The position numbers were made by a program, and so were the translations under genes. A model generated the notes under the pieces. That model ran no database searches. It worked only from the letters and a program-made list of their open reading frames with translations, and was not told the DNA's origin. A stretch of 64,000 nt of DNA from a virus (Duplodnaviria; Caudoviricetes), in the IMG/VR virus record IMGVR_UViG_3300047390_000093, positions 2,566 to 66,565 of that record. The stretch is one strand, 5' to 3'. This document shows positions 24,393-52,522 of this stretch, piece after piece. The stretch's first letter is position 1. Each line of letters opens with the position of its first letter.

Positions 24393-24460
24393 AGGGGAGG
24401 GGTTAAAAATTATACCCCTCCAATTTTTACAGGGGGGAGGGGTCAGATATTACCCCCCTC
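24393..24460. repeat. duplicated G-tract/C-tract inverted repeats
   Basis: GGAGGGGT-N10-ACCCCTCC and AGGGGGG-N15-CCCCCCT. The direct repeat CAGGGG(GG)AGGGGT occurs twice. Confidence 0.75.
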
Positions 24461-24466
24461 ATTATA

Positions 24467-24496
24467 TTGAATAACAATCAATGTAATACTTATAAT
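24467..24496 (+). promoter_or_regulatory. sigma70-type promoter TTGAAT-N18-TATAAT
   Basis: Near-consensus boxes upstream of SD AGGAG and ATG 24520. Confidence 0.7.
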
Positions 24497-25814: not shown

Positions 25815-26185
25815 CAACTGTAGTGCAAGAACCAAGAGTAGAGAATTACCTAATTATGTTAGCCAAGTACACTTGGCTACATCTTCATCCCGGTGATGGG
25901 ATGCGTCGTCTTATCCACGCACGTGGTGAAGAAGAGTTGGCTGCATGTGATTCTTTTCTTGATCCGTATGCCAAAAAGTACAAGCACCAACTCAAAGACT
26001 TCTGTGAAACACATCTTCCACAGATTGACAGTCGCGCTCGCTTCAATGATTGGTGCGCATCCGAACCAACACCTGAAGAGAGACAGAAGTTTCGTGAATA
26101 CATGGCAAAGATTATTGTTTATGGTGTTGATGGTTTTACTTACACACCTAATGGATGGGAGGTCATAGATACTACCAGTGCCTAA
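25811..26185 (+). CDS. early hypothetical protein
   Basis: ATGA overlap at 25811 (MTTVVQEP), SD AAGGA. Confidence 0.7.
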   Translation: MTTVVQEPRVENYLIMLAKYTWLHLHPGDGMRRLIHARGEEELAACDSFLDPYAKKYKHQLKDFCETHLPQIDSRARFNDWCASEPTPEERQKFREYMAKIIVYGVDGFTYTPNGWEVIDTTSA

Positions 26186-26426: not shown

Positions 26427-26681
26427 ATGAGATTTAAATACGAAGTACTTTATGGAAGCTTAGTTCTTGAAGCGCTTCTTAAAGAGAAGTTAATCACAAA
26501 TGATCATTACGATCATATGTGGGAGAGGTTTAATCAACAAAGTAATGAGTTAAATTACACATTAGTTGATTTGGCTGAGGTATTACTTAATCTTGAGCAA
26601 GTTGATTGCGAAATGATTGTCAATTACATGACTGCTAATCATGACGTAAAAGAGTTTTACACAACTAAACTTGCTATCTAG
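26427..26681 (+). CDS. early hypothetical protein
   Basis: Abuts the previous stop. Confidence 0.65.
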   Translation: MRFKYEVLYGSLVLEALLKEKLITNDHYDHMWERFNQQSNELNYTLVDLAEVLLNLEQVDCEMIVNYMTANHDVKEFYTTKLAI

Positions 26682-26687
26682 TTTCTT

Positions 26688-26716
26688 GTGAGGGGTGCGC
26701 CTCACTGACAACGCAC
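26688..26716 (+). ncRNA. predicted H-type pseudoknot, copy 1 (cis-regulatory RNA candidate)
   Basis: S1 GTGAGG/CCTCAC, L1 G, S2 GTGCG/CGCAC, L3 TGACAA. Intergenic, repeated at 27231. Confidence 0.65.
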
Positions 26717-26732
26717 AGAAAGAGTTTCTATT

Positions 26733-27224
26733 ATGTCTATTGAATTGCACACAACGTATTTCCGCAACCAGCTACTTGGTATCCCTGCCAAAGTAGCAGA
26801 CGGTACATTGCCTTATTATGGTGGATATCACACCACATCATGTTCAGATACCGTTGAACTCAACGGGCATTTCATCCAGATGGAATACAGTTTGAGAATG
26901 GATGTGGCTAATGGTGAAGAGAAGACTCTTCATCCTATCCCTCTTGTTCAAATTGAACTGACTATGACATTGCGTCCTGACAAGGATAGCCGTGCTACAT
27001 CTTCAATCATGAGTAAAGTAATCAAAGTTCAGTTGAACTCTGAGACTCTTGAAGAGCAGATTGATGAAGCAATCCAGACACTGGAGCGCATCATTATAGA
27101 TGTCAAACTGCCAACTATAACCTTTGACTTCTGGAAGTATGTGGCAATGGCAATGCCAGACTTTGAGAAGCAGGTAAGCAAGACGGTTGTAACTAATCAT
27201 AATCGTCTGTCCTACAAGGACTAG
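26733..27224 (+). CDS. early hypothetical protein
   Basis: 163-aa ORF, weak SD AAGAG. Confidence 0.75.
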   Translation: MSIELHTTYFRNQLLGIPAKVADGTLPYYGGYHTTSCSDTVELNGHFIQMEYSLRMDVANGEEKTLHPIPLVQIELTMTLRPDKDSRATSSIMSKVIKVQLNSETLEEQIDEAIQTLERIIIDVKLPTITFDFWKYVAMAMPDFEKQVSKTVVTNHNRLSYKD

Positions 27225-27230
27225 TTAAAT

Positions 27231-27259
27231 GTGAGGGGTGCGTCTCACTAACAACGCAC
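27231..27259 (+). ncRNA. predicted H-type pseudoknot, copy 2
   Basis: S1 GTGAGG/TCTCAC (G-U replaces G-C), S2 GTGCG/CGCAC, L3 TAACAA. Confidence 0.65.
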
Positions 27260-27273
27260 AGAAAGAGTTTATT

Positions 27274-27507
27274 ATGACAACTAAAAAACGAGTAGAAGAG
27301 TATCTCAAATGGAGCAACCTCGATATGTTCGTGCATGACTGTGGTGATGGCATTAAACGCATCAAGTTTGCACCGAAAGGCATGTATACACAGTTCCATG
27401 CATGTCCACATGAACAACATGCTCACAACTGGTCTGAAGCCTTGATATGGATCAAAGGTTACAACCAAGCACTCATCAATCATCAACTACTAGGAGACAA
27501 AATATAA
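27274..27507 (+). CDS. early hypothetical protein
   Basis: ATG 27274 (MTTKK), same leader as ORF 26733. Confidence 0.7.
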   Translation: MTTKKRVEEYLKWSNLDMFVHDCGDGIKRIKFAPKGMYTQFHACPHEQHAHNWSEALIWIKGYNQALINHQLLGDKI

Positions 27508-38159: not shown

Positions 38160-38921
38160 ATAGACTTTCTTTTGGTCACTATTGACGATGCAATCAAGAT
38201 CAAAACTACGAGCAAGATCTCTGATTGTTGCATACGATTTACCGTCTCGTATAATACATTGAACGGCCAGTGGCTCACCATTGAGTACTGGCCCATCTTC
38301 CCAAGCCAGTACAATATTGTCCCCAGCGACAAGCCGAACAAAGTCACGCACAGGCGCGTAAGTCTTTCCGTTCTGCAATAAGGCAACAATGTGGTTGTCT
38401 CCATATACAATCTTCCAATCCTGCCCAGCTTGAATCAGTGACCAAGGTCTAATAAATCGAACAATATCTTTGTTGCGATTTCCATACAATGATCGGTGGG
38501 CTACTTCATATCCATTACGACTACCATCATTATTACTGTTGCCCTCAATGGATTTCCAGACACCATCCTCATCACGACCTTCAACAATCCCAATATGAAA
38601 TGCATCTTGCCTTCCATTTTTCAATGTCTTTACCAAGATAACTAAATCACCTGCCATTGGAGTTGTATGCAATACTCCATGCTTTCTAGCAACAGCCAGC
38701 CAGACATCGCAGTCTGCACTAAAACATAATGGCCAATCCAATCCACTTTTATTTTCCCACTCAGCTGCAATCCCGCTAACAAATGACGCACACCAAAAGC
38801 TACCTATAGGTGCATTAACTAGTGTGTTCCATCGGTCAATCATTGGGCCACAGTTGCTTCCAACGGGTTGCTCAGAAACCCCTATGTACTTCTGAGCAAT
38901 CTCGACAAATTGCTTTATCAT
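38142..38921 (-). CDS. endolysin: CHAP amidase plus copper-amine-oxidase-N-like tail
   Basis: WCASFVS (Cys), HIGIV (His), IEGNS. Two GKTY/GKSY-x-x-(V/I)RD repeats in the C-domain. Confidence 0.78.
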   Translation of the reverse strand: MIKQFVEIAQKYIGVSEQPVGSNCGPMIDRWNTLVNAPIGSFWCASFVSGIAAEWENKSGLDWPLCFSADCDVWLAVARKHGVLHTTPMAGDLVILVKTLKNGRQDAFHIGIVEGRDEDGVWKSIEGNSNNDGSRNGYEVAHRSLYGNRNKDIVRFIRPWSLIQAGQDWKIVYGDNHIVALLQNGKTYAPVRDFVRLVAGDNIVLAWEDGPVLNGEPLAVQCIIRDGKSYATIRDLARSFDLDCIVNSDQKKVYLKKTV

Positions 38922-41900
38922 CTTCCTAACATCTTTCCTGTAGTAAGATCACCCGGTAGGTTAATCTTAGCCGGAGGCATACGCTTCTTAACTTCGTCAG
39001 TCATAACGCCCTTATTAACTCCGCTCTCCTTCATGACTGCTCGATCAGGGAACCCCATCATTGGCTCAGATTTATTAAAAGCTGGAATTGTGTCGCTGTA
39101 TCCACCACTTTCCGGAACACCTTCAATTAATGACATCCATCCATGATTGGCAATCATATTGCTTGCATTTGGATAAGTGTATTTCTTAGTACGAGCTATG
39201 TAGTTATATGCCTTGCCGGACATAGTTCCCATCTTTCCCTTTTGCAATTCATCCATTAGATAGTAGTCGTTAAACTTAATGTCCTGTCCAAATGGACGAA
39301 TGAAAGCAGGGATAGCATACGCACTATAATCACCACTTGCGCTTTTACCTGTATTGCGCAACGTATATTCAGCCCACGCCATTGCTTCTAAGTCTCGCAA
39401 TGCATTTTGAACCTGCAGGTTTTGCGTTAACGATATGAATGATCGAGACAATCCATTTGGTGCTCTATTCAATAAATGCATTGCCCATGCAGTTGGCTGA
39501 CTATCAAACAGACCAACCTTTTTAAAAACAACGTCTATATTTTTTAGCTCTGCATTAATTCTGCGCAACTCTTTTCCGTTGTTCTCGTTTTCGGCAATGC
39601 GTTTCTCATCGTATAAAGCATCACGCCGTTGTACTAATGTACGGAACTGCCTTAAACCAACATCCTTTTGATACGCAGGTAAATCAGTAAACGTGCGTCC
39701 GTAAGCCATTTGCTTCATTAACTGTATTTGAGGCCCTAATCGATTTGCAAAGTTAGCTTGCCACATTTCTCTTGCAAACTTTGCTGCCTTATCTGGTGCG
39801 CTTAAACTTGGCTCATTAGCCGCAGCAATTAACGGACTTACGAATGTACGTTTAATAACTGTCGCTGTCTGTGGTAACGCAAACTCTAATGTGTTACCAG
39901 CACGGACAACACCATAATTGTTTTTAGAGTCGATAGGGTTCCACCATTGCTTGTTATCGAATGAAAGTATGTCGTCAACTCGTTTACCTTGAGAATTGTA
40001 TACAGGACTCATAACACGTCGCCAATCCATAAAATCAATAGGATCATGTTCCATATACTCATGTAACCTACGCTTATCCATATACATACCCAACGCTTGG
40101 AATGCTGTGCCTAACATTGCAGTTGCACCAAGAGCACTTGCACCAGTTAAAATATGTTGTTGTAATACTTCCTTGGTGCGTAATGAGCTAAACCATTTTT
40201 CTTCAGCAGATGCGTCAGCAATATCCCAGCCAACATGGAATGGATCAAGTCCACGTGTTGCAGTTCTACTAACAACATTAATTCCATCAGCCATTAATTT
40301 CTTGACAGCAGCTGGTGCATACCACTGCATCATCTGGGAGTCAAACCAGTTTGGCGATGTATACAGTGTACGAGCGTGACTATTAAATGATCGCTGTGCA
40401 TCACTCATTAACCAGTTTGTGCCAGATGGATTACCTGTAACGACATTAATAAATGTTGCGTAATCACGTTTTGCTTGAGCCTTTTGGAACGGCTTCATAA
40501 TCGTGTTGTTATCAATGTATGTTGCAAATTCCAAAAATGACTTAACACGTAGGATGTCAGTTGACAATGCACCACCGCGTTCAAACTGGTTTACGAACGG
40601 TAGTATTCTACGAGCAAGAAGTCCATCACCAAGGTTTTCAGCTTGTGTTGGCTGAATAGACACATCTTCTGGTAACAATGATGGGTCCAACAACTTACGT
40701 TGATTGTATGAATCAAACCAGTCACCATAAGTTGTCTTTAATCCATACTGTGCCAAATCATTGAAGTCATAATCCTGCCTAACTTCACGAGATGCTGTAC
40801 CCGGAATGATTCCATAGTTCAATCTATTGCCAGCAGTACCGTACTTAGTAAGGTAGTTATACATCTTAGCGTGATACTGCTTATCTCCAAATGCTAAGTC
40901 TGGTCTGTGCGCAAATGACATTGCTGCAAGTTGACCAGCCTTGCTCATTGGTCTAGCTCTTCCACCAGAAAACCACCATAAGTTTGGAAGTAATGCAGAT
41001 AGACCCCAGAACTGTGCAGCAAAATTCTTGGGATTTAATGCTGTCAACCTAAAGTTCTGCAGCATTGGCCTAGCAAAGTCAACAGACAAAACTGCCGCCT
41101 TCATTAAACTTGTAAGCTCATGATATCCACCTAAGATGAATCCACCACCACGTTTTGTAAAGTTGACTGGCCCATTCATAAGTGTATGAGCTGCACCAGC
41201 AGGTAGATTTTTTAATGCATCTACTGGTGTACTTGGTCCGGTAGGTCCATCAGCACTAAACATAGTGCGAACAGTGTAATCATAATCGCTATCTGGAATA
41301 GTGATGTAAATACTGTCATTCTTTACAGCCATCGCAACGTGTTGCATATTTGGATTAGCCTCACGTTTTACAACAACACTCTTTGGTGGTGGGACTGCAT
41401 AAGCTCTTTGTAAAGCCCAGTTAAATTGTGTTTCCTTATACTGTCTAACTAAGTCTGGATTTTTCATATCCTCCGGACTCAAAGTTAATGGAAGATCAAA
41501 GTACGCCCTCTCTGTCTCAGACATAGCTTCTAAGTCTGGTTCATGATCAGCACCATCACTCAACCACGTTCGTTTACGGTTATGGTAAACGTCTGTAGAT
41601 GACAACGCACTGTCAACATATGCCTCATTCTGTGGTCCAGATAACCGCATATATGAGGCACTCTTCTGTGCGTTCGATTTCTTCCATGTAGAAGGAATAG
41701 ATGTGTCACCGTTAATTAACGCACGTGCAACTAACAACTTGGCTATCATAACCTCACGTGGAATGATTGCAGTATTAGTAGCATTACGTATCGCATTTGG
41801 ATCTGCATCAGGATTATTAGCAAATGCTAAACGCATCAAGTGATTGATCGCTTGTGTTTGTAAGCGTTGATTGTTTACAATCTCACCATCATCCTTGGTG

Positions 41901-44900
41901 TATTGAGATTTATAACCGTGCTTGAGAGGTACTAATGTAACTTCTTCACTAGGGTCATAAGCGTAGGACCTGCGTCCACCTTCAGCTATTGGCTTTCGAC
42001 TTACACGGAAGAAGTTTAAGCCGGGTTGGGTTTGATTGTTGTCAATACCAAATGGGCGAATGATATCAATGCTATCCGTAGATGAACTAATTAAATCATT
42101 GTATTCACGAGAAGTAAGAAACACATCGCCAATTTCTCTATTGAATGCATTTTTCTTCATGTCATCTGCTCGCATACGAACAGGTGTGTGCTCAGGATTG
42201 TATAACGCCATTGTCCTACTAAATGGCGAATGATCAAGAATCTGATCTCTTCCAAAATCAAATGCAGCACTTTCAACAAAGTTCTCAGGGTTATTTAAAT
42301 TAACTCTATACAGAGCACCTTCTTTATCCCGGATAATGACAGCGTCATTTGTAGGGAATGACTTCTCTCCTACTAAAGACCAATCTTTCCATGCATATAA
42401 AGCTCTGCCGATCTCACGACTCTGAGCATCAAGAGCATGAGAAACCGACATGAATTCAGCATAAGCACTGTTACGTGCATGCATAGCATTTTGGTAATTA
42501 GTTGCTGCTTCTGGGTCGTTATCTACATCACCATAATCATCTGGGTTTGTTGATGAAGACAACCGATCTAAGAAGTTTGCTTTACCTGCTACAGAATTCC
42601 CATATACAACATTCATCAATGTGTCTAATACATACGCACTAGTCATTGGTTTTGATTGTTGTAAATCTAAATCAGATTTTAATTCTCCCGTTTCAAGTAT
42701 TGGCCCAATGACATTGTCATAGAAATTAGTTGCACGAGTGGCAATATCCATTGCGTCAACATTGTTGATTGCTAATTTCTCATTACGTAATAGGTTATGT
42801 ACTAAGTCTGTAGTTTGGAATTCACGACCATCTTGTAAGGTCACTGTTGTAGGAATGTCATACTTTGACATGATGCTATCTAATCGCTCACGCCTATCAG
42901 CGCGAATACTTCCACGTGTGTTGACTTCAGAATATGCATTAATCAACTTGGTTCTCAGAACATTTAAATCTTCGGAACCACCAAGCATAGCTTGGAATAC
43001 TGAGAACATAGCCTCCTGTTCAGGGCTACCCTGTTGAATAATCCAACTGTTAGTCTGTACAGCTTGATTGCGATCATGTCTAAATAAACCATTGTCTGCA
43101 ATGTATGGTGATAGAACCGTACTAATTGCATTGTCAAGTCTGGACACAAAAGCTTCACCTGCTTCAGTTGGAACAACAGTTCCATCATCAAGTTTAACCG
43201 AGTATCTATTGCTTACGATTTGATCTAAAAGTGCATCAAATTGATTAGCTCCGTCAATAATTTGTGGCTGCATAGACATACGTGTAGCAGACACAGCCTT
43301 GTATTCAGGACTTGCAAAGTAGCGATCAAGCGATTCACCTAATGGAACCGATGTGCGCATTGTAAAACTGCTTGCGTTATTGGAGAGCAGTCGCTTTTCT
43401 AAATCAAGTTGTTTTTTCCATCGGACATTTCCAACAGCATCATACAAAACTGTATTAATTTTTCGATGCGTATCATAAATGAGAGCCGAAAACTTAGGGT
43501 CAAACTCTTGAGTGTAGCCAACTAAAATTGGGTCGTAAGTACTTCTGTTCTGTTCCGCAAATGCTTTTTCACCAACTAAGAATCTAACCTGTGATCTAAA
43601 TTCTCTGTCACCAACAGTAATTACAGCTGGTGCTTCAACTACATAAGCATATTCATGCTGACCAGCAATAGCATAACGGTACGCTTTAGGATCTTCTGTG
43701 TTAGCACGTAATCGCGGAACAAACCAACCATCGTTATCAGTTTCTCCACGTACCCACGTATTAACTCCGTCGTAATACGCTGGTTCATAGCCAGTTAAAC
43801 GAGCCTGTGATGGGGATTGAGTCGTAGTCTTTGCAATCATATCTACAACACGACCCGTGTATTCCTTGGTTGGCATACTTTGCGGGCTAATAATGCGTGT
43901 GTTGTATCGATTCTTAAATGGGTTAACTTGTACAGTTTGTATTAACCCCGGATTCTCAAGCAAGTACCTACGCAACGTAGGGTCAGAGAATGGCAGGTGA
44001 ATAGATTGATCTCCAACAGTATGTTGGAAACCAAACATGTAAGGACTACCACCAAATTCAATGTCATTAGCCTGAACACTTTTAATTGAACGCATCATTT
44101 GAACTGGGCTAACAACTTCCGATTGCATTGTGTCGCGAGTTGGCACAGACACACGTAAGAAGTTACCCTTTTGCATTTGAGCAAAGTTTAATTCTCTGTA
44201 AAAAGGTCCACGTGGAGTATCAACACGACCAAAGATATAGTCTTGGTTCAAGTGCGTCTGTGGAAGCGTGTACTTCTGCATTGGTACTGGCATATACCAT
44301 GCAGCATGTGGAGAACCCTTCTCGTCGTAAATAACATCTAATGGATGTTGATTATGAATCTGGCGCATGACATAACGTAATGTCGAACGCATTTGCTGGA
44401 ATACAGATAATGTAGCACTATCAATGGATGCTGCAGCATTCCTACTTTGAACAACCGTGTAGTCTGTAATGAAGTTCAACATGCCTGTCACAAATTTTTC
44501 GTGACCATGACTGATCCATCCGTTCGCTAAATCCTCACCACGATACGTAATACCAGACAACGGCTTCAATGCATCTTCTAAGGTCTTAGCTTTACCAGAC
44601 ATTAATGCTTCACGTGCAACTTTAATTTGAAGAGCTAGTGCCATTTCCGGATTATTGAATCTATCAATTTGTTTTTGCACTGCTGGCTTACCAGCTTCAA
44701 CGCGTTCTGCTACGGATACTCTATCTGTTGAAGAAATAGTTCTAGCTAAACGACCTAACTCGTCAGTCATTGTTTGATCCATGAGTGATGAACCAGACAC
44801 TAATGAATCTAAGAATTCAACCTGTGTGCTGTCAGCCATACCCGTAAACAACGGGTGGAACATCTCGTGTGTAAGTGTAAGAGCAGTTCGATATGGACTG

Positions 44901-47900
44901 TTTTTCTTACTGCCAATATAGATCAATGACTTAATCGCACGTCCTTGGTTATGAGCCAACGATTGAGTAAATCCAAACACATCACGCTTATCAGCAGTTA
45001 CACGTCGAGCGGTCGCTCCAACTTCATCAAGCAAATCCTGATTGGTGATCAAAACCTTATTGTGTTTGGTGTAATAGTCTTTCTTGTATTTTGCAGTTAG
45101 GTACGTCAATGCATAATTCTTCTGTTCTGGGGTCACACTTGTTCCAGTTAAGAATAGGTTTACATTAACTTGTGGTTGTAAGAAGTCATTTAATGCGGAG
45201 TTAGAAACACCAGTTATTCTTAATGCCTCGGCAACCTCATCCTTAAACTCACGTGAATGATTAGCACTTAACTTTATTGCTAGTTGTTCACGTGCATAAC
45301 TCAAAGCATTAATGTCATACATTGCTGCTAAGTTATCAGCATACTCCTCCATTGCAGCTGCTTCATTAGCCTTAGAAACTTTTTGCCTAACAGCAATGAC
45401 GTCTCCACCAGTTTCAGCATGTTTTGTGTATGCATCCTTAATACTAGTTAGCGTTTCAATAGTACTTGCGTTATCTGGCGTAGCAGGTATTCCATCAATC
45501 ACTCCTGAGTACAGCGTACTTAACCGACCCGCCATCTCTGGCGATACCTGCGTTATGACATGAGGGACATAACCTAAGTTGATTTTGGAATGTGCTTCGT
45601 TTAAACTTGAATAATCTACACTGGCAAATGAACTTTCAGATGAAAGACGTAGTGGGATTCCAGCTTGTTTTAAAGATGCGAGTATACGTCGTGCAGTAAA
45701 TGCAGGATCAGCACTAGTAGATATAACAGGCCTTGCTCCTATATCAGCCAGTCTAGTTGTCGAATTACGAACACGCGCATTTGTATCTGGATTAATGTCC
45801 TTTAGAATCCCTTGCACAATCTTCATTGCGTCATCTGGTGATTCTCCATTTAGAAGGTTTAATCTCTCAACTGCCCTATTCGCCCAAACATCATAGTACT
45901 CAGATACTTTACTTCCCGGATAACCACGTATGTCAGGCATATTCTTCAGTAAATCTGCTGCAACCCTTAGTGCTTCATAAGCTGGATTGTTTTTACTTGT
46001 TGCCGTGTATCTAGTAACAGTACTCTTTATGATTCCGTCTATTAATCCAGCGACATCATCATCAATGGGTAAGTCCAAGAACTTTCCACCAACTGCCTCT
46101 AACTTATCGGCAATATACATTGGTGATACGTATGTGTCATTGACTAATTTAGTTACGGTGTCTCCTGAACGACTTAGTACTTCTGTTGCGTGTTGTGCAT
46201 CCGCGTCACTAAATGCCTTAGCCAACATGCTACGCATTAAGATTCGCATGCCCTCAAAGTTTTGAGCACTATAAGCAACGATCTGATCATCAGGAGATTC
46301 AATCATTCCATCAAAGGCGTTTGGCCCTTGTGATTTAACAAGCTCCTGAACAATATCTGGTGAAGTAGAGACAAATGCTCGCATGTCATCTGGAACTTGG
46401 TCAATGTTCCCAAATGTCATGTCTCCATCATTTACAATAGTTGGCTCTGTATCTTCAACCTTGTTGTACGCATCTACCCTTGCAATTAACTCAGCTACGT
46501 TTTGACTAATGCCATATTGATTAGCAAATACTTCTGGTCGCAAATCGCCTGCTTGTAAACGTATGACATCAGATAATGAAGCACGTGCTATCACATCGGA
46601 CGTTGTGCCAGAAACTCGCAATCGCCTGACGCTGTCTTCTAGCATGATATTTTGCGCGGCATATGTAACTGTCAAGTCATTCTTGATGCTGTTACTAATC
46701 TCGGAATCTGATGGGAGTAACGATGTAAACTTTCCATAAACAGAAAGCATTACATCCATGCCGATTTGATCAGATGACACATCACCTAATAATTTGATCA
46801 CTCGGTTAATAGCATAATCGTAATTTTCATACATAAACCGACGATCGTTTGTTGTGCCAGTATTCTTTAAAGTCTTACGTTCTTGTGCAAGTCTAGCTTG
46901 CTCAGCATTCAATTGTATTTGTAGAGACGTAGCTTCTTCTGGTGTGGCAGACGCAATTTTCGACGTTAATGATTTTATTCGTTCTTCAATAAGACGTATG
47001 TCTGTGCCTGTTACATCTGTGACACTAGTCATTACTGGTTCTGTATCAGCAGACATTGCATCAAACGATGTTGTAGTACTTACTTGATCTCTTCGACTGA
47101 TTGCACTTTGCAAATCATTCAGGACATCAAACACAGATGTTACTGCAACATTTAAATCTGAATTGTCATATACAGAATAAGAGCCATCATCTTCAACCTC
47201 ATATCTGAATGAAGTGTCTGACTCATTACCTGTCATAAACGCCGCTGAAATCTGCTCTGTTTCATCAGCATCAGCAGGACGCTTAACTGGCGGTTGTACT
47301 TCTTTTATTATTCCGAGCGTATCTCTAACTGACGCTATTCGACTATTAAATGTATCGATGACAAACGTGTCAAGTTCATCATATAACGCCGTGATTTTAT
47401 CTGCGTTTAATTTACGGTCTTTTTTTAAATCATCAATGCGCTCCCTGATGCTTGTAAATCTAGGGTCTGACTCAATAAATGAAACAATTGATCGTAAATC
47501 TGTGTTGGTCGTAAATATTTTACGTGCGTTATTTTTAAAAACCTGCACGTATACTTCGTGCGCACGTATTTGCGCCTCTGACATTGACATGCCTGATTCA
47601 CGTGCAGCTCGTGCGGTAGATTCTCTATATGCTTGATCAGCACTGGCAACACGTAGGTTGGCAGGTTGATCTTTCTTTATCTCGCCATTAACTTCTACGT
47701 CACTAAACAAACGTAATTGTCGCTTGCCATCTTTATCGTATGCTCTAAGTAATTCAATTTCCTGATCACTAAGAGAATCAAGTAGCTCATTAATTCTATT
47801 TACTTTGTCAATAGCAGCCTGACGCTGTGTCTCTGGTATACGAATATCACCAGCAATGCCATCTACAATTTGCTGATACATACCTCTAATTTCTGGAGCA

Positions 47901-50900
47901 AACGAGATGTTATTAGTTTGGTCTGTAGTTCCAGTCCCATCTACCATGAACTGACCAGACAGAATTTTAGCGTTAATAGTTTCAATTGCTACATCTGGTA
48001 AGTACGTATCGTACATATAGGACACAGATGCTCGATGCCATTCAGAAGCAGCCTGTGGATTATTCTGAATTAATCGACGTGTTGTTGCTGATGTAACATC
48101 GGATGCCATGTGATACAAGAACTCAAGTCCTAGTGTACGTAAACGTGCATACACGATGTCACGCATTTCGTAACGTTCCGTATCACCATCACGGAAAGTC
48201 TCAGTGCGAGTCTCCTTTAAAAGACCTCTTACATCACGAACAGCTTTGTCAAACTTATCTTTAGACTGCCAGAATTCAGCTGCGCTATCAGGAATAAATC
48301 TGTCAGCTTTAATTTGAGCGACAATATCTGGCATTCCTACTGCAGCAATAGCGCGGCCCAACGTAGCTTGTGATGCATGGCTGGCTGCAGATAACTTATC
48401 CACGTGCCACTTATCCTGTATGTAGTAAAACACGTGAGGTGCAATACCACGCAGTTGCTTAGCTAGATTAATAACCTTGTTTGACTCAACAGTTTTTGGA
48501 TCAAAACCAAGGCTTGTCAACGCCCTCTTAAAAATATCTGCATCCGTACGTTGACCGGCATTAAGCATTAACAAGTTCATTCGACGGGCAATTTGTAATG
48601 CTTCCGTTCGTTTTGCTATTGTTCCGAATTGTGGAAGTCTGTCACCAGCAGCAAACAGCGTACCAAATTTAGGGTCAATAGACTGATGTACACTCATAAT
48701 CCTGTAAAGCAACTCATTGAACGCTTCATCAGAATACACAGCCATCGCCTTGCTAAATGTGGCAATATCAACCTCTTTACCCGGTGCGGAGAGATCTGAA
48801 ATTACTTGAGCGATTGCGTCCTGCACATCCTCAACATTGTTACGCATTGCCCACTCAAGAAGACCACGCTGTATACCAGCCGGAGTTGCTCTTGTATTGA
48901 CAATAGCTTCACGTATATTGGTAAATAAGTCTTCTGGTTTTGAAGATGCAATCTGTGTTCCTACGTCAACGTTAGCTGTATATGCTAAGTACTGTGCGAT
49001 TGCAGCTTCGTCTGCGCTGGTAATAGCAGCTGGTCTGGCAAATTCACCTGTTGTATCCGTTGGTGATTTTGATTGTAGTACATCTTCTGCCTGATAACTT
49101 TCAGATAATGCAAACCTATCAGCAGATAGTGTGTATGCTGGGCCGAGAGGGTCATCCTTAAGTTTTACAGTAGCAACACCATTGTCTGCTTCAACAACTA
49201 CACCTTCAGATACATCACGCAGACCAGCATCCGCAGTGCGGAATACAACTCGGTCACCGGGTTTAAGTGTAACGTCAGCAACAAACTTGTTGTTTTCGGC
49301 ATCATAACGCAATGCCTTATTCCCAGACATCATCTCGCCAGACATGTCAGCGACGACACGTTGTACTAACATCTCAGCCTTTTGACTATCTGGTATCTCC
49401 ATGTCAAGAATGGCTCTGAATACGTCGCCTAAGTCTGGTGTAATCTCTAACTTAGAAGGAACGCCAGTACCATAAATGTCAGCTTCGATATATCCTGCGC
49501 CATTTTCAATAAAGTCATTTGCGCTTTTAATAACAGAACTAGTAAACAGTTCCGGCGTAGACGATGCAGACGATTCGTTTAGTACAGGTAATACCTCTGC
49601 GCCACCTTCTGGCGTTGGGCCAAATACAACAGATCCATCAATTAACTGATAGATACCTATTGGCATGGTTAATCCAGAGGATGCAATCAAACGTCCGTTC
49701 ACTAATTCGCCAGTTGCTATATTGACTTGTGTTGGGAAATTATCACCAGTTTCTGATGTTGGTAACGGTGATGAATTACTTGTAGTTCGACTTAACTTTG
49801 TGCGTGTATACAAGTCGTCAAGGACAGCCAGTAATGCTCTATTCTCTCGGCTAAGTTCCTTTTGCACTTGATCGAACGACATGTATGTATAACCAACATC
49901 AGCGTTACGACCAGCCTTCTTGGTTTTAACAATAATAGTTCCATCTTTGCGGATACCACCAATAGCCTTAATGACGCCATCTCTTGTCCACTGATTTTGC
50001 CGTGAATTAAAATCACGCTTTAAACCAGCAACGCTATTTGCAAGAGTTTCTATACGAGCTTGCGCCTTCTGTTTATTAACATCAACAGAATTAATTATCT
50101 GGACATCTTCCAGCCCATCATCACCACGATGTAACGTAGCGTCACTAAAGTATTTGTTGTAGACGATGTATTCATTAACACCATCAACGTTGCCTCTAAG
50201 CACACCAAAGTATTGCTTGTCTGGTGTTGCAACTTCTGCTGGCTCTACAGACTCAAGTGTCTGGCCAGCATTATACATATCGTATTGCGCTTGAATAACT
50301 GGTCGTAAAGTCTTGCCTAGTTGATTAACTGCTTTTGCTTTGCTAAGTGGGGTAACGGGGAATAAAGCAGGATTAACAGCCAACGTAGATAGTGGACTGT
50401 CAAATGGCAATTTACTGTTGTCGCCACGCACACGCATCTGACGAATCATATTGTCTACGTTGTAACTTGATTCGCTCTTATTATTTATGATGTCAAAGAA
50501 GATTGCATCCAGCGACTTGAATGTTGGCGAGTTGCGATCTTGATTAACAAACTCTTGTGCTGCTGTTTCATACACATAACTTGTAATACGTTGTAAGTCT
50601 TGACTGTTTGCTTCTTGCCCACCAGTAAGTACGCCAAATCTAGCATTGACACCAGTTGCGTGATACCCACCACGTTCAACCATATCCTGTGCATAGAACT
50701 TAGTCTGTGCTGCTATGTCTACGCCTCGCCCTAATTTATTCCCAATAAATCCTTGTAATCCCTTAGCTGGCCTAACAGCAACAGCCGCCATGGTTAAGTT
50801 GGTTAACCAGTCAGTAACAGTTGGTGCTTGAACTTCGGGGTTAAAATTTGAACCAAATTGTCTTGCAACAGGATCAAACACGTTTGATAAACCAAATGCA

Positions 50901-52522
50901 GCATCACCAGCAACACCAGCTTGAAGTGAATAGTAATCCATCAACATCTTCTGTCCCTCGACAGACGCAGGATTTACTTTAGCCACACGGCCAAACACTC
51001 CAAGTTTTCCAAGGTCCCTACTTAATGAGAATAACTTAGTTGCATCTTTATAAAACTGATTTGCACCACCACCAAACATACCTAACGTCATGGCTAATTT
51101 CTGTGCGCCAAAACCTTCACTCTGTTCGGTCTGCTGTTTTAAGTCGTACTCACCTTCTGGTAAACCAATCTTTCGTGTGTACTCAATAGGGTTCCCAAAG
51201 TTGCTAATTATCTCACCTTTAGAACCACGCTTCTGGTCACCAAATCCAGCACCGACAGCTTGGACTGCACCGGGAAGCATCATGCCTCCCATCCTAGCTG
51301 CGTTAAGTGCAGTACTTGTTTTAATAGCTGGCAACAATGCGCGAGTAACAGCGTTACCAACGATCTGCATGCCAACAAGGTTGCTGCCAGCCAAAGGAAC
51401 TTGCTCAATAATATTCATTGCTGAGATACGAGCAACTTGCCTGTCTAGGTTTGTAGGATCACCAGTTAAATCTGTGTACCATTGATTAATACCAAGGTTG
51501 TCATAAACTCGTTGAGCTTCATCAGTAGATTGCCCGTATAGACCAGCAGTAGCCTTCGCACCAATATTTCCACCAATAATTGCTGGATTAACAACACCCT
51601 GCAATGCTCCTGCACCACCACCAAAATATGCTTCCTCAAGAATTCCAGTGTCTTCACCAGTCTTCTCTAAACGAGCACGATAATCTTTTTCAAGTTGATC
51701 CATGGACTTCTCTGTACCCATGGCTTGAGCAGCCCAACTAAACGGATTGTATGTTTGATTTAATCTCTGAGCACCGCCAGCAAGCATCCCTCCAACTGCA
51801 GTAGCTCCTGCTAAGTTTTCCTTAACGCCCTGTGGTACTCGTGTCTGTGTTATTTTCTCATCAGCTAACTGACGGCCTAAACTTAATTTGCGTAATGCCC
51901 GATCGTTTTGTGCATCTCCCGGTTCACTCCTATAGTTCCTGCCAGATCTTAAAGCTGGGGCTGGAACCACTGCTCCGGATGGTGTTTGTACTTTAAGTCT
52001 CTGTGCTTCAACGTGTCGTTTACTAAACTGGTTAATAATATTGTCTCGTGTCTGTTTATCGATTAAACCTCCACGGAAACCATCCTCAATTAACTTTTCA
52101 TTCTCATCATTTAGTACACGAATATAATCAGGACTCTGAAGTGATTTGACCAGTGGGTCTAATACAGATGTTCTATACGTTGCACTTTCTTGCTTAATAC
52201 GTTTAAGCATTTTTTCATTTTGAGATATGTCATATGCGGGACCAAACTTAAACGCTCTACCGCGAACGTTGCCACGAACATCATCTTCAGCAGCCACTCT
52301 AGCTGCCAATAATGCACGTGTTGGAGAATCAGGATGCCATTTTCCTAACTGCTCAGCTCTTTTTCGTGCATCCTTATAATCAGGAATGCCAAAGTCATCA
52401 AACCAAAAACGAGAGGTCGGATTTTGACCGCCTCCCATTAATGGATATTTTTGTCTAGCTTCTGTTTCGCTTAAAGCGTTACTACGTAAACCAAGATTAT
52501 AAAGAGAAGATCGATCTGGCAT
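38918..52522 (-). CDS. giant 4534-aa putative internal virion/ejection (polyvalent) protein
   Basis: 13.6-kb uninterrupted ORF at the ejection-protein position. G/A-rich hydrophobic N-region, SH3-like segment, HEMFH zincin motif. Confidence 0.7.
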   Translation of the reverse strand: MPDRSSLYNLGLRSNALSETEARQKYPLMGGGQNPTSRFWFDDFGIPDYKDARKRAEQLGKWHPDSPTRALLAARVAAEDDVRGNVRGRAFKFGPAYDISQNEKMLKRIKQESATYRTSVLDPLVKSLQSPDYIRVLNDENEKLIEDGFRGGLIDKQTRDNIINQFSKRHVEAQRLKVQTPSGAVVPAPALRSGRNYRSEPGDAQNDRALRKLSLGRQLADEKITQTRVPQGVKENLAGATAVGGMLAGGAQRLNQTYNPFSWAAQAMGTEKSMDQLEKDYRARLEKTGEDTGILEEAYFGGGAGALQGVVNPAIIGGNIGAKATAGLYGQSTDEAQRVYDNLGINQWYTDLTGDPTNLDRQVARISAMNIIEQVPLAGSNLVGMQIVGNAVTRALLPAIKTSTALNAARMGGMMLPGAVQAVGAGFGDQKRGSKGEIISNFGNPIEYTRKIGLPEGEYDLKQQTEQSEGFGAQKLAMTLGMFGGGANQFYKDATKLFSLSRDLGKLGVFGRVAKVNPASVEGQKMLMDYYSLQAGVAGDAAFGLSNVFDPVARQFGSNFNPEVQAPTVTDWLTNLTMAAVAVRPAKGLQGFIGNKLGRGVDIAAQTKFYAQDMVERGGYHATGVNARFGVLTGGQEANSQDLQRITSYVYETAAQEFVNQDRNSPTFKSLDAIFFDIINNKSESSYNVDNMIRQMRVRGDNSKLPFDSPLSTLAVNPALFPVTPLSKAKAVNQLGKTLRPVIQAQYDMYNAGQTLESVEPAEVATPDKQYFGVLRGNVDGVNEYIVYNKYFSDATLHRGDDGLEDVQIINSVDVNKQKAQARIETLANSVAGLKRDFNSRQNQWTRDGVIKAIGGIRKDGTIIVKTKKAGRNADVGYTYMSFDQVQKELSRENRALLAVLDDLYTRTKLSRTTSNSSPLPTSETGDNFPTQVNIATGELVNGRLIASSGLTMPIGIYQLIDGSVVFGPTPEGGAEVLPVLNESSASSTPELFTSSVIKSANDFIENGAGYIEADIYGTGVPSKLEITPDLGDVFRAILDMEIPDSQKAEMLVQRVVADMSGEMMSGNKALRYDAENNKFVADVTLKPGDRVVFRTADAGLRDVSEGVVVEADNGVATVKLKDDPLGPAYTLSADRFALSESYQAEDVLQSKSPTDTTGEFARPAAITSADEAAIAQYLAYTANVDVGTQIASSKPEDLFTNIREAIVNTRATPAGIQRGLLEWAMRNNVEDVQDAIAQVISDLSAPGKEVDIATFSKAMAVYSDEAFNELLYRIMSVHQSIDPKFGTLFAAGDRLPQFGTIAKRTEALQIARRMNLLMLNAGQRTDADIFKRALTSLGFDPKTVESNKVINLAKQLRGIAPHVFYYIQDKWHVDKLSAASHASQATLGRAIAAVGMPDIVAQIKADRFIPDSAAEFWQSKDKFDKAVRDVRGLLKETRTETFRDGDTERYEMRDIVYARLRTLGLEFLYHMASDVTSATTRRLIQNNPQAASEWHRASVSYMYDTYLPDVAIETINAKILSGQFMVDGTGTTDQTNNISFAPEIRGMYQQIVDGIAGDIRIPETQRQAAIDKVNRINELLDSLSDQEIELLRAYDKDGKRQLRLFSDVEVNGEIKKDQPANLRVASADQAYRESTARAARESGMSMSEAQIRAHEVYVQVFKNNARKIFTTNTDLRSIVSFIESDPRFTSIRERIDDLKKDRKLNADKITALYDELDTFVIDTFNSRIASVRDTLGIIKEVQPPVKRPADADETEQISAAFMTGNESDTSFRYEVEDDGSYSVYDNSDLNVAVTSVFDVLNDLQSAISRRDQVSTTTSFDAMSADTEPVMTSVTDVTGTDIRLIEERIKSLTSKIASATPEEATSLQIQLNAEQARLAQERKTLKNTGTTNDRRFMYENYDYAINRVIKLLGDVSSDQIGMDVMLSVYGKFTSLLPSDSEISNSIKNDLTVTYAAQNIMLEDSVRRLRVSGTTSDVIARASLSDVIRLQAGDLRPEVFANQYGISQNVAELIARVDAYNKVEDTEPTIVNDGDMTFGNIDQVPDDMRAFVSTSPDIVQELVKSQGPNAFDGMIESPDDQIVAYSAQNFEGMRILMRSMLAKAFSDADAQHATEVLSRSGDTVTKLVNDTYVSPMYIADKLEAVGGKFLDLPIDDDVAGLIDGIIKSTVTRYTATSKNNPAYEALRVAADLLKNMPDIRGYPGSKVSEYYDVWANRAVERLNLLNGESPDDAMKIVQGILKDINPDTNARVRNSTTRLADIGARPVISTSADPAFTARRILASLKQAGIPLRLSSESSFASVDYSSLNEAHSKINLGYVPHVITQVSPEMAGRLSTLYSGVIDGIPATPDNASTIETLTSIKDAYTKHAETGGDVIAVRQKVSKANEAAAMEEYADNLAAMYDINALSYAREQLAIKLSANHSREFKDEVAEALRITGVSNSALNDFLQPQVNVNLFLTGTSVTPEQKNYALTYLTAKYKKDYYTKHNKVLITNQDLLDEVGATARRVTADKRDVFGFTQSLAHNQGRAIKSLIYIGSKKNSPYRTALTLTHEMFHPLFTGMADSTQVEFLDSLVSGSSLMDQTMTDELGRLARTISSTDRVSVAERVEAGKPAVQKQIDRFNNPEMALALQIKVAREALMSGKAKTLEDALKPLSGITYRGEDLANGWISHGHEKFVTGMLNFITDYTVVQSRNAAASIDSATLSVFQQMRSTLRYVMRQIHNQHPLDVIYDEKGSPHAAWYMPVPMQKYTLPQTHLNQDYIFGRVDTPRGPFYRELNFAQMQKGNFLRVSVPTRDTMQSEVVSPVQMMRSIKSVQANDIEFGGSPYMFGFQHTVGDQSIHLPFSDPTLRRYLLENPGLIQTVQVNPFKNRYNTRIISPQSMPTKEYTGRVVDMIAKTTTQSPSQARLTGYEPAYYDGVNTWVRGETDNDGWFVPRLRANTEDPKAYRYAIAGQHEYAYVVEAPAVITVGDREFRSQVRFLVGEKAFAEQNRSTYDPILVGYTQEFDPKFSALIYDTHRKINTVLYDAVGNVRWKKQLDLEKRLLSNNASSFTMRTSVPLGESLDRYFASPEYKAVSATRMSMQPQIIDGANQFDALLDQIVSNRYSVKLDDGTVVPTEAGEAFVSRLDNAISTVLSPYIADNGLFRHDRNQAVQTNSWIIQQGSPEQEAMFSVFQAMLGGSEDLNVLRTKLINAYSEVNTRGSIRADRRERLDSIMSKYDIPTTVTLQDGREFQTTDLVHNLLRNEKLAINNVDAMDIATRATNFYDNVIGPILETGELKSDLDLQQSKPMTSAYVLDTLMNVVYGNSVAGKANFLDRLSSSTNPDDYGDVDNDPEAATNYQNAMHARNSAYAEFMSVSHALDAQSREIGRALYAWKDWSLVGEKSFPTNDAVIIRDKEGALYRVNLNNPENFVESAAFDFGRDQILDHSPFSRTMALYNPEHTPVRMRADDMKKNAFNREIGDVFLTSREYNDLISSSTDSIDIIRPFGIDNNQTQPGLNFFRVSRKPIAEGGRRSYAYDPSEEVTLVPLKHGYKSQYTKDDGEIVNNQRLQTQAINHLMRLAFANNPDADPNAIRNATNTAIIPREVMIAKLLVARALINGDTSIPSTWKKSNAQKSASYMRLSGPQNEAYVDSALSSTDVYHNRKRTWLSDGADHEPDLEAMSETERAYFDLPLTLSPEDMKNPDLVRQYKETQFNWALQRAYAVPPPKSVVVKREANPNMQHVAMAVKNDSIYITIPDSDYDYTVRTMFSADGPTGPSTPVDALKNLPAGAAHTLMNGPVNFTKRGGGFILGGYHELTSLMKAAVLSVDFARPMLQNFRLTALNPKNFAAQFWGLSALLPNLWWFSGGRARPMSKAGQLAAMSFAHRPDLAFGDKQYHAKMYNYLTKYGTAGNRLNYGIIPGTASREVRQDYDFNDLAQYGLKTTYGDWFDSYNQRKLLDPSLLPEDVSIQPTQAENLGDGLLARRILPFVNQFERGGALSTDILRVKSFLEFATYIDNNTIMKPFQKAQAKRDYATFINVVTGNPSGTNWLMSDAQRSFNSHARTLYTSPNWFDSQMMQWYAPAAVKKLMADGINVVSRTATRGLDPFHVGWDIADASAEEKWFSSLRTKEVLQQHILTGASALGATAMLGTAFQALGMYMDKRRLHEYMEHDPIDFMDWRRVMSPVYNSQGKRVDDILSFDNKQWWNPIDSKNNYGVVRAGNTLEFALPQTATVIKRTFVSPLIAAANEPSLSAPDKAAKFAREMWQANFANRLGPQIQLMKQMAYGRTFTDLPAYQKDVGLRQFRTLVQRRDALYDEKRIAENENNGKELRRINAELKNIDVVFKKVGLFDSQPTAWAMHLLNRAPNGLSRSFISLTQNLQVQNALRDLEAMAWAEYTLRNTGKSASGDYSAYAIPAFIRPFGQDIKFNDYYLMDELQKGKMGTMSGKAYNYIARTKKYTYPNASNMIANHGWMSLIEGVPESGGYSDTIPAFNKSEPMMGFPDRAVMKESGVNKGVMTDEVKKRMPPAKINLPGDLTTGKMLGR

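Follow-up and report, generated by a model that had tools for sequence, protein, structure and literature searches.

Predicted 29-nucleotide RNA pseudoknots conserved at cistron junctions of uncultured phages

Introduction

Apart from terminators, RNase III sites and ribozymes, few cis-acting RNA elements have been described in the mRNAs of phages. The pseudoknot of the T-even gene 32 operator heads the leader of the single-stranded DNA-binding protein (SSB) gene itself, where it nucleates gp32 binding, and is linked to mRNA stability and translational control. Among viral exoribonuclease-resistant RNAs (xrRNAs), the coremin type (xrRNA_C) consists of a 4 bp hairpin with a YGAD or YGNNAD loop, the spacer GUUAAACUAC and a required second hairpin (PMC6546385, PMC10520033). 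In the Watson–Crick variant of coremin, xrRNA_WCC, the mutations G5A and G5C abolish function (PMC10321173); this RNA stalls ribosomes without a second hairpin and needs the second hairpin to stop Xrn1 (PMC10321173, PMC10520033). Since a flaviviral xrRNA can block the bacterial RNase J1 (PMC5760640), RNA structure could in principle stop exonucleases of bacteria. The gene 32 operator pseudoknot itself is absent from Rfam (PMC10690425). Here, we describe a predicted RNA pseudoknot with a 29-nucleotide (nt) core that is present twice in a 64,000 nt stretch of phage DNA, referred to below as the window (bases 2566–66565 of the 66,565-bp IMG/VR virus record IMGVR_UViG_3300047390_000093, rated complete by CheckV), and that recurs in many uncultured phages. 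An initial annotation of the window had pointed to the two copies.

Two copies of the element in the window

Direct comparison of positions 26687–26727 and 27230–27270 gave 39 identities in 41 positions, as annotated, and the similarity extends to 50 nt (26678–26727 versus 27221–27270; 90%). The first of the two differences, C26700 to T27243, changes the proposed closing pair of stem 1 (S1) from G–C to G–U; the second, G26707 to A27250, lies within loop 3 (L3). Both copies can fold with S1 as GUGAGG/(C/U)CUCAC, loop 1 (L1) as G, stem 2 (S2) as GUGCG/CGCAC and L3 as U(G/A)ACAA. Each begins after a TAG (26679–26681; 27222–27224) and a spacer of exactly 6 nt, also as first noted, and is followed by AGAAAGAGUUU and then by ATG (26733; 27274). 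The features of the locus are as follows.

26427–26681, plus strand: upstream open reading frame (ORF) of 84 amino acids (aa), ending with TAG 26679–26681; no Pfam or PHROG match
26682–26687, plus strand: U-rich 6 nt spacer UUUCUU from the stop codon to pseudoknot copy 1
26688–26716, plus strand: pseudoknot copy 1; covariance model R1 score 51.2 bits; S1 5' strand 26688–26693, L1 G26694, S2 5' strand 26695–26699, S1 3' strand 26700–26705, L3 26706–26711 (UGACAA), S2 3' strand 26712–26716, conserved A at 26717
26717–26732, plus strand: gene A leader AGAAAGAGUUUCUAUU, rich in purines and without a canonical Shine–Dalgarno (SD) sequence
26733–27224, plus strand: gene A, 163 aa, between the two pseudoknots
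27225–27230, plus strand: 6 nt spacer UUAAAU from the gene A stop to pseudoknot copy 2
27231–27259, plus strand: pseudoknot copy 2; covariance model R1 score 54.5 bits; S1 5' strand 27231–27236, L1 G27237, S2 5' strand 27238–27242, S1 3' strand 27243–27248, L3 27249–27254 (UAACAA), S2 3' strand 27255–27259, conserved A at 27260
27260–27273, plus strand: gene B leader AGAAAGAGUUUAUU
27274–27507, plus strand: gene B, 77 aa; family 3 of the genes found behind pseudoknots

The 29-mer pattern has two matches in the window and none in 100 shuffles, and copies of the core in the whole 66,565-bp genome are found only at 26688–26716 and 27231–27259. Positions 25898–25922 were considered as a third copy and rejected; they lie inside an ORF and neither stem can form.

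The GUG that opens S2 of copy 2 is in frame with gene B and gives rise to an 89-aa GTG-started ORF in ORF lists (27238–27507). In the A8 variants elsewhere, AUG stands at that position of S2 and starts a 7-codon mini-ORF that ends at UGA after S2. These in-frame GUG and AUG codons are treated as incidental because the frame differs between copies.

A family of pseudoknots in uncultured phages

The initial annotation had treated the element as a two-copy repeat. Instead, the two repeats are members of a widespread family of predicted 29 nt RNA pseudoknots in uncultured phages, with the core present in more than 100 viral and metagenome contigs. Exact-pattern scans in which one or the other stem was left open returned 33–39 IMG/VR contigs per pattern, and 76 stretches of metagenome assemblies, from lakes, the sea (TARA) and bioreactors, also contain the core. 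The sequence of copy 2 is the commonest 29-mer of the family (52 of 199 pattern matches). Complete relatives of 60–67 kb carry two or three copies in the same region. A covariance-model search added variants with an L3 of 7 nt or 3 nt, and the family consensus is NNNNGG-G-(G/A)UGCG-N-CNNNN-U(A/G)ACAA-CGCA(C/U)-A.

Extra, more diverged copies occur elsewhere in the genomes of relatives (L041:4840–4866, minus strand; L043:11387–11413; L018:7163–7193, minus strand; L108:1396–1426). Their L3 has only 3 nt (GAA, AUA) or has 7 nt (UGAACAA), and the 3 nt forms are then followed by a strong AGGAG. These copies indicate that the length of L3 is flexible while G7 and S2 are kept. Nine matches in bacterial metagenome-assembled genomes were discarded, as they look like chance matches in coding DNA and form S1 at two or three of six pairs.

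Gene A is flanked on both sides by the knot, at a spacing of about 543 nt, in most related genomes. The gene A proteins from 31 contigs are mostly 27–36% identical to that of the window, and the knots flanking these relatives are identical or one to two loop or wobble changes apart. Such comparisons show the predicted knot core to be under far stronger selection than its neighbouring genes.

Evidence for the fold

Comparative analysis shows a conserved element, predicted to be a sense-strand RNA pseudoknot, at cistron junctions. Pairs were counted on 39 and then on 48 distinct sequences using the structure of the initial annotation, and copies were kept if they formed at least five of the six S1 pairs. 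Standard pairs made up 97–98% of the pair cells. Pairs 1–18, 2–17, 3–16 and 4–15 of S1 each change on both sides; the 5' strands seen were GUGAGG, CUGAGG, UUGAGG, AGGAGG, GGGAGG, GGCAGG and AGCAGG, and further CGCAGG, CCCAGG, GCGAGG, ACGAGG, CCGAGG, GCGUGG and GUGGGG, with a matching 3' strand in each case. The observed covariation score was reached by none of 500 shuffles, and pairing collapsed when the partner columns were slid by 1–3 positions.

The five pairs of S2 are formed in 100% of the sequences. Its outer pair, 8–29, is G–C in 29 of the 48 sequences, A–U in 12 and G–U in seven; it is never unpaired and never A–C (Fisher 7e-7). The A–U state is combined with six different S1 stems and has thus arisen or spread repeatedly. 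No variation is seen in the inner four pairs, an invariance that is partly forced by the search patterns, and they are hence uninformative on covariation. In two scans with S2 left open, real copies had only (G/A)UGCG with CGCA(C/U) and all other matches were chance matches, so alternative S2 sequences were rejected. The pair counts on phage and metagenome copies show covariation in S1 and in the outer S2 pair, in keeping with the H-type pseudoknot first proposed, and none of the 48 distinct sequences has a mismatch in S2. The proposed stem lengths of 6 and 5 bp were borne out for S2 and for five pairs of S1. The sixth S1 pair (G6 with N13) is G–U in 26, G–C in seven and unpaired in 15 of the 48 sequences and is not kept; the conserved S1 is therefore 5 bp long, G6 and G7 either remain unpaired or make tertiary contacts, and the junction is 1 nt. 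Thermodynamic z-scores were not significant because ViennaRNA cannot model the pseudoknot.

G·U or U·G pairs outnumber A·C pairs by 13 to 1, which argues that the sense strand folds, as RNA, and not the template strand or duplex DNA. This ratio bears on the idea that the element acts at the DNA level, whether as a promoter (including one of the hairpin type, used by a phage polymerase) or as a site of recombination by which gene cassettes are shuffled. Such a role would suit direct repeats that surround gene A at module boundaries, and homologous genes occur with or without the knot in different genomes, as in the PeSL (promoter-early stem-loop) cassettes of T4; in addition, a portion of the motif, GCGACUCACUAA in the A13 variants, recalls T7/T3 promoter cores. 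No conserved promoter was found at the knots. A promoter for a T7-like polymerase was rejected: the genome gave no match to RNA_pol (PF00940), a search for which the control was uninformative, Pfam found no phage RNA polymerase among the larger ORFs of the plus-strand block, and the tolerance of G·U favours RNA. Sigma-70 promoters over L3 (26705–26734, 27248–27275) were also rejected, as the matches need TATTAT, which is missing in relatives. We consider a DNA-level function very improbable; repeat-mediated shuffling may occur as a side effect.

Positions G5, G6, G7, U9, G10, C11, G12, C14, C27 and A28 are invariant, and A23, A24, C25 and G26 are nearly so, with exceptions only in short-L3 variants, which are misaligned. 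An invariant core with a freely covarying S1 is typical of binding pockets. The knot could accordingly be a recognition site that sets the expression of adjacent units: it would serve as operator to an RNA-binding protein of phage or host, or as a small aptamer, similar to a riboswitch, for a ligand. The L1 G, four S2 pairs and G5–C14 are invariant and the L3 adenines are near-invariant across distant clades, S1 covaries freely, and the knot follows an SSB-like gene in one clade; its size and topology resemble those of preQ1-I. On the other hand, there is no conserved expression platform or alternative pairing with the start region, no protein family is common to the clades in the sequences compared, the downstream genes are unrelated and gene A has no recognisable RNA-binding fold. 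Nor was there any match to a riboswitch or other family in Rfam, either at gathering scores for the motif in the window and at 15 other loci or at E values up to 10 for 26600–27350; the pseudoknotted RNAs that it failed to match include preQ1-I/II/III, guanidine-III, SAM-II/V, EAR and pistol. We regard a recognition site as unlikely. The literature search found no report of the motif in phages and no paper with its sequence, a 2023 catalogue (Fremin et al.) of 10,006 candidate phage RNAs lying outside the comparison; together with the Rfam result, this agrees with the earlier suggestion that the element is previously undescribed.

Genomic context

Contexts were counted over 174 unique examples, with an upstream ORF scorable in 164. 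In 154 of the latter, a same-strand upstream ORF stops 5–8 nt before the knot (TAA 102, TAG 55 and TGA 7 among the 164). The 65 distinct stop-to-knot spacers are 70% A+U and end with U in 46 cases. The distance from the knot to the next start, 8–26 nt, is more variable than that from the stop to the knot. No copy was seen at an operon start among the contexts examined.

A recoding signal would cause frameshifting, read-through or hopping at the stop 5–8 nt upstream. Stimulators of −1 frameshifting and of read-through lie at the same distance, luteoviral frameshift knots have a matching architecture and coremin-type knots stimulate frameshifting in vitro (PMC10321173). However, a slippery heptamer 4–9 nt upstream was present in 0 of 116 unique contexts (background rate 1.2%), the upstream and downstream ORFs show no preferred frame relation (offsets 53/46/44), read-through would add only short extensions of variable length, and each of the three stop codons occurs. 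A gene-60-like hop was rejected as well, with matching take-off and landing codons in only some contexts. Recoding is largely refuted and keeps hardly any probability.

Small genes of at least 14 unrelated families stand behind the knot. Window homologues of three of these families are without a knot and have AGGAG or AAGGA with overlapping stop and start codons. In this clade, leaders behind the knot are 58.5% A, and ACA occurs in 67 of 83, with about two ACA motifs each; an SD core is present in only 12 of the 83. The median SD duplex energy is −2.4 kcal/mol behind the knot versus −5.6 kcal/mol for the other ORFs of the same loci (Mann–Whitney 4e-22, uncorrected for relatedness), and a duplex of −6 kcal/mol or stronger is formed by 2.8% of the knot-following genes versus 39%. 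The weak SD noted initially before the two window genes is statistically upheld at the level of the clade. A possible likeness of the motif to 16S rRNA 1486–1503 (GGGGUG...UAACAA) carries no weight in the interpretation.

These leaders would suit a translation-initiation module, in which the knot and its A-rich, ACA-rich leader would recruit or park the 30S subunit via ribosomal protein S1 (standby) and so replace the missing SD. Genes behind the knot are nearly without SD sequences in this clade and their knot-less window homologues use AGGAG; moreover, binding of ribosomal protein S1 and the 30S subunit to the standby site of tisB depends on a 5' pseudoknot (PMC7708055), and ACA motifs enhance translation (PMC3879156). 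Against this, the knot keeps a more constant distance from the upstream stop than from the start, and in other clades (L060, L087) AGGAG follows immediately behind it. The knot also precedes a tRNA cluster, a tRNA-like RNA and a terminator, contexts that a purely translational role, as in the translational operator proposed initially, leaves unexplained. The link to weak initiation sites stands in this clade; a translation module as such appears fairly unlikely.

The non-coding contexts are of three kinds. In L054, a hairpin and an intrinsic terminator stand behind the knot. In L121 (2750–2855, minus strand), 3 nt separate the knot from tRNA-Asn, the first gene of a downstream tRNA-Asn-Ser-Thr cluster, and the knot is itself closely preceded by a hairpin whose loop is CU-rich. 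In a second clade, a tRNA-like RNA of about 95 nt starts 2–5 nt after the knot (L036:7617–7712; L037:2278–2372; L039:2575–2668; L088:11428–11522, minus strand; L102:4884–4976, minus strand; L113:2762–2858, minus strand). It combines a 6 bp acceptor-like stem and a canonical T arm (loop UUCGAUU), both of which show covariation in their stems, with a long loop, CU-rich (anti-SD-like), in place of the anticodon arm. ARAGORN and Rfam made no call on it. It sits between an SSB-like gene (phrog_378), upstream of the knot, and a gene of about 735 aa. No protein neighbour common to all clades was found in the sequences compared (BLAST E below 1e-5).

Knots ahead of untranslated RNA genes and, in L054, of an intrinsic terminator would suit a processive antitermination RNA like HK022 put or Bacillus EAR, in which RNA polymerase, bound by the knot during transcription, would read through terminators and untranslated stretches. 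Two or three sense-strand copies lie in the early operon, outside ORFs; the early operon of the window is rich in terminator-like hairpins, and the invariance of the core would make sense if the partner were universal, as RNA polymerase is. Yet copies 543 nt apart around one gene are unexpected for a processive modifier, no terminator lies close behind either window copy and Rfam gives no EAR match; the knot is also unlike the two stem-loops of put. Antitermination is in our view highly unlikely.

Genome and gene A

The genome encodes a P22-like portal, a DnaB helicase, a 4,534-aa orphan ORF and two tRNAs. A blastn search for cultured relatives in INPHARED gave no match, and the portal protein shares only about 23% identity with its actinophage counterparts. 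The plus strand carries small early and replication genes from approximately 21.8 to 38.1 kb. A strong sigma-70-like site at 24467–24496 (TTGAAT-18-TATAAT), the best of the region, heads the operon that carries both knots. Directly before this site, within 24394–24496, are two tandem G-rich hairpins, GGGGAGGGGU...ACCCCUCC, without U-tracts. The 4,534-aa ORF (38918–52522, minus strand) has no PHROG match, and its neighbours (1,110-aa, 640-aa and 1,795-aa) are orphans by Pfam and PHROGs.

The genes downstream of the window knots have no PHROG or Pfam match. Gene A was modelled with AF2 at a predicted local distance difference test (pLDDT) of 90 as a 4-stranded antiparallel sheet packed by helices. 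Fold comparison gave no informative match (best Foldseek E value 5e-3); hits to actin-capping protein (VIA Z 6.8) and, weakly, to the PP7 coat protein were both non-specific, and a search of the ESM Atlas found nothing. An assignment of gene A as an RNA-binding protein was rejected, the model being confident but the fold matches weak and non-specific.

Discussion

We tentatively favour the reading that the knot is a cis-acting roadblock or insulator at cistron junctions, because it fits every context (genes, RNA genes and the terminator), the anchoring to the stop codon and the nearest known knots. The knot would be transcribed within the early polycistronic mRNA of the phage and would act in cis as a compact, triplex-stabilised structure. 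As it begins just beyond the footprint of a ribosome terminating upstream, it would stay folded. It could then block 5'-end-dependent decay by RNase E or RNase J after a cut in the A/U-rich spacer, and could also stop post-termination ribosomes arriving from upstream. The downstream unit (gene A, then gene B) would gain a stability of its own, and ribosomes would initiate on its A-rich, ACA-rich leader whether or not the upstream gene is translated.

Several observations weigh against this reading. The near-invariance of S2 and L1 across distant phages points more to a partner (protein, ribosome, RNA polymerase or ligand) that recognises specific bases than to a need for stability alone. The knot is found at only two or three of several dozen junctions per genome and is therefore not a general junction device. 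The 5–8 nt spacing from the stop is partly inherited, other clades having 3–15 nt. The second hairpin of coremin (hp2), needed for Xrn1 resistance, is missing in 119 of 120 phage contexts: a hairpin of at least 3 bp, 0–3 nt after the knot and with a dG of −2 or below, was present in 1 of 120 unique contexts versus 2 of 120 shuffled ones, and at neither window copy. Frameshift pseudoknots without a second hairpin did not stall Xrn1 (PMC10321173). As for the fold itself, S2 is supported by one covarying pair plus perfect conserved complementarity, and the choice of copies by S1 complementarity is partly circular; this is offset by S1 pair counts that are bimodal among pattern matches and by a 2% chance of the four free pairs forming.

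By analogy, the roadblock could be taken further: the phage knot might be the prokaryotic counterpart of viral xrRNA/coremin that would, alone, halt both 5'-to-3' decay (RNase J, 5'-end-tethered RNase E) and post-termination ribosomes, and cut long phage messages into separately stabilised and translated units. We hold this to be doubtful. If true, it would mean a structural solution common to phages and eukaryotic RNA viruses, by descent or convergence.

The 29 nt motif is absent from Rfam, is under stronger selection than the surrounding proteins and is spread over many uncultured phage lineages from lake, marine and bioreactor samples. A nuclease or ribosome roadblock, if confirmed, would be the first bacterial-world relative of viral xrRNAs and would offer synthetic operons a 29 nt insulator ready for use. 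Should the knot instead bind the ribosome, RNA polymerase or a ligand as a universal partner, the invariant face formed by S2, L1 and L3 would be a new recognition module.

Comparison with known systems

The parallel to the T4 gene 32 operator drawn initially was not supported by the gene context; in the window, we found nothing that ties the knots to the 5' leader of an SSB gene. The two have in common an H-type pseudoknot in phage mRNA upstream of an unstructured leader. They differ in that the present knot precedes unrelated small ORFs and, in the second clade, lies 3' of the SSB-like gene. The T4 PeSL elements are likewise short repeated cassettes that border small early genes and are gained, lost and shuffled among related phages. 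PeSL consists of a promoter and a terminator-like hairpin and acts on DNA and transcription, whereas the selected feature here is a predicted RNA pseudoknot with no conserved promoter. The tisB standby site also places a pseudoknot before a single-stranded stretch that aids 30S and ribosomal protein S1 loading where the ribosome-binding site (RBS) is poor or hidden (PMC7708055). The tisB element, in contrast, exerts its effect at a processed 5' end and about 100 nt away from a sequestered RBS; its sequence does not resemble that of the phage knot, which is found in front of RNA genes as well.

None of the three features that define xrRNA_C is present in the phage knot. In place of the YGAD loop (YGNNAD for 6 nt loops; PMC10520033), it has the loop GGUGCG (plus N13), the first nucleotide of which is G in 48 of 48 sequences. 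In place of GUUAAACUAC (8–10 nt), it has the 11 nt stretch U(A/G)ACAA + CGCA(C/U), and the only common trait is that both are A-rich (GUUAAA in coremin, UAACAA in the phage). The third feature is the second hairpin discussed above. Stem lengths also differ, S1 and S2 having 4 and 3 bp in coremin and 5 and 5 bp in the phage knot, and so do the hosts: coremin belongs to eukaryotic RNA viruses, whereas the phage knot is found in DNA phages of bacteria, which are without Xrn1.

Resemblance to xrRNA_WCC is closer. Both are small H-type knots with a short G–C-rich S1 and an A-rich crossing loop, and both have a single bridging G in L1, which is essential in xrRNA_WCC and invariant in the phage (G7, 48 of 48). 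In each, the hp1 loop and the end of the spacer join in a Watson–Crick S2, paired throughout in the phage, and the GCG/CGC of the xrRNA_WCC 'Hit2' S2 is contained in the phage GUGCG/CGCAC. The SPlV5 xrRNA_WCC lies 8 nt after the end of an ORF, compared with 5–8 nt for the phage knot (PMC10321173).

The likeness to luteoviral pseudoknots stated in the initial annotation is apt by architecture. Like the −1 frameshift knots of beet western yellows virus (BWYV) and potato leafroll virus (PLRV), the phage knot is a compact H-type fold with an L1 of 1–2 nt and a junction nucleotide (PMC10321173). It has an L3 of the AACAA type, expected to lie in the minor groove of S1, and a position 5–8 nt downstream of the ribosomal A-site codon. 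It differs in standing behind a stop codon, without a slippery site or overlapping frame, and in its longer S2. The phage knot at best works like the coremin and luteoviral knots and is a member of neither family.

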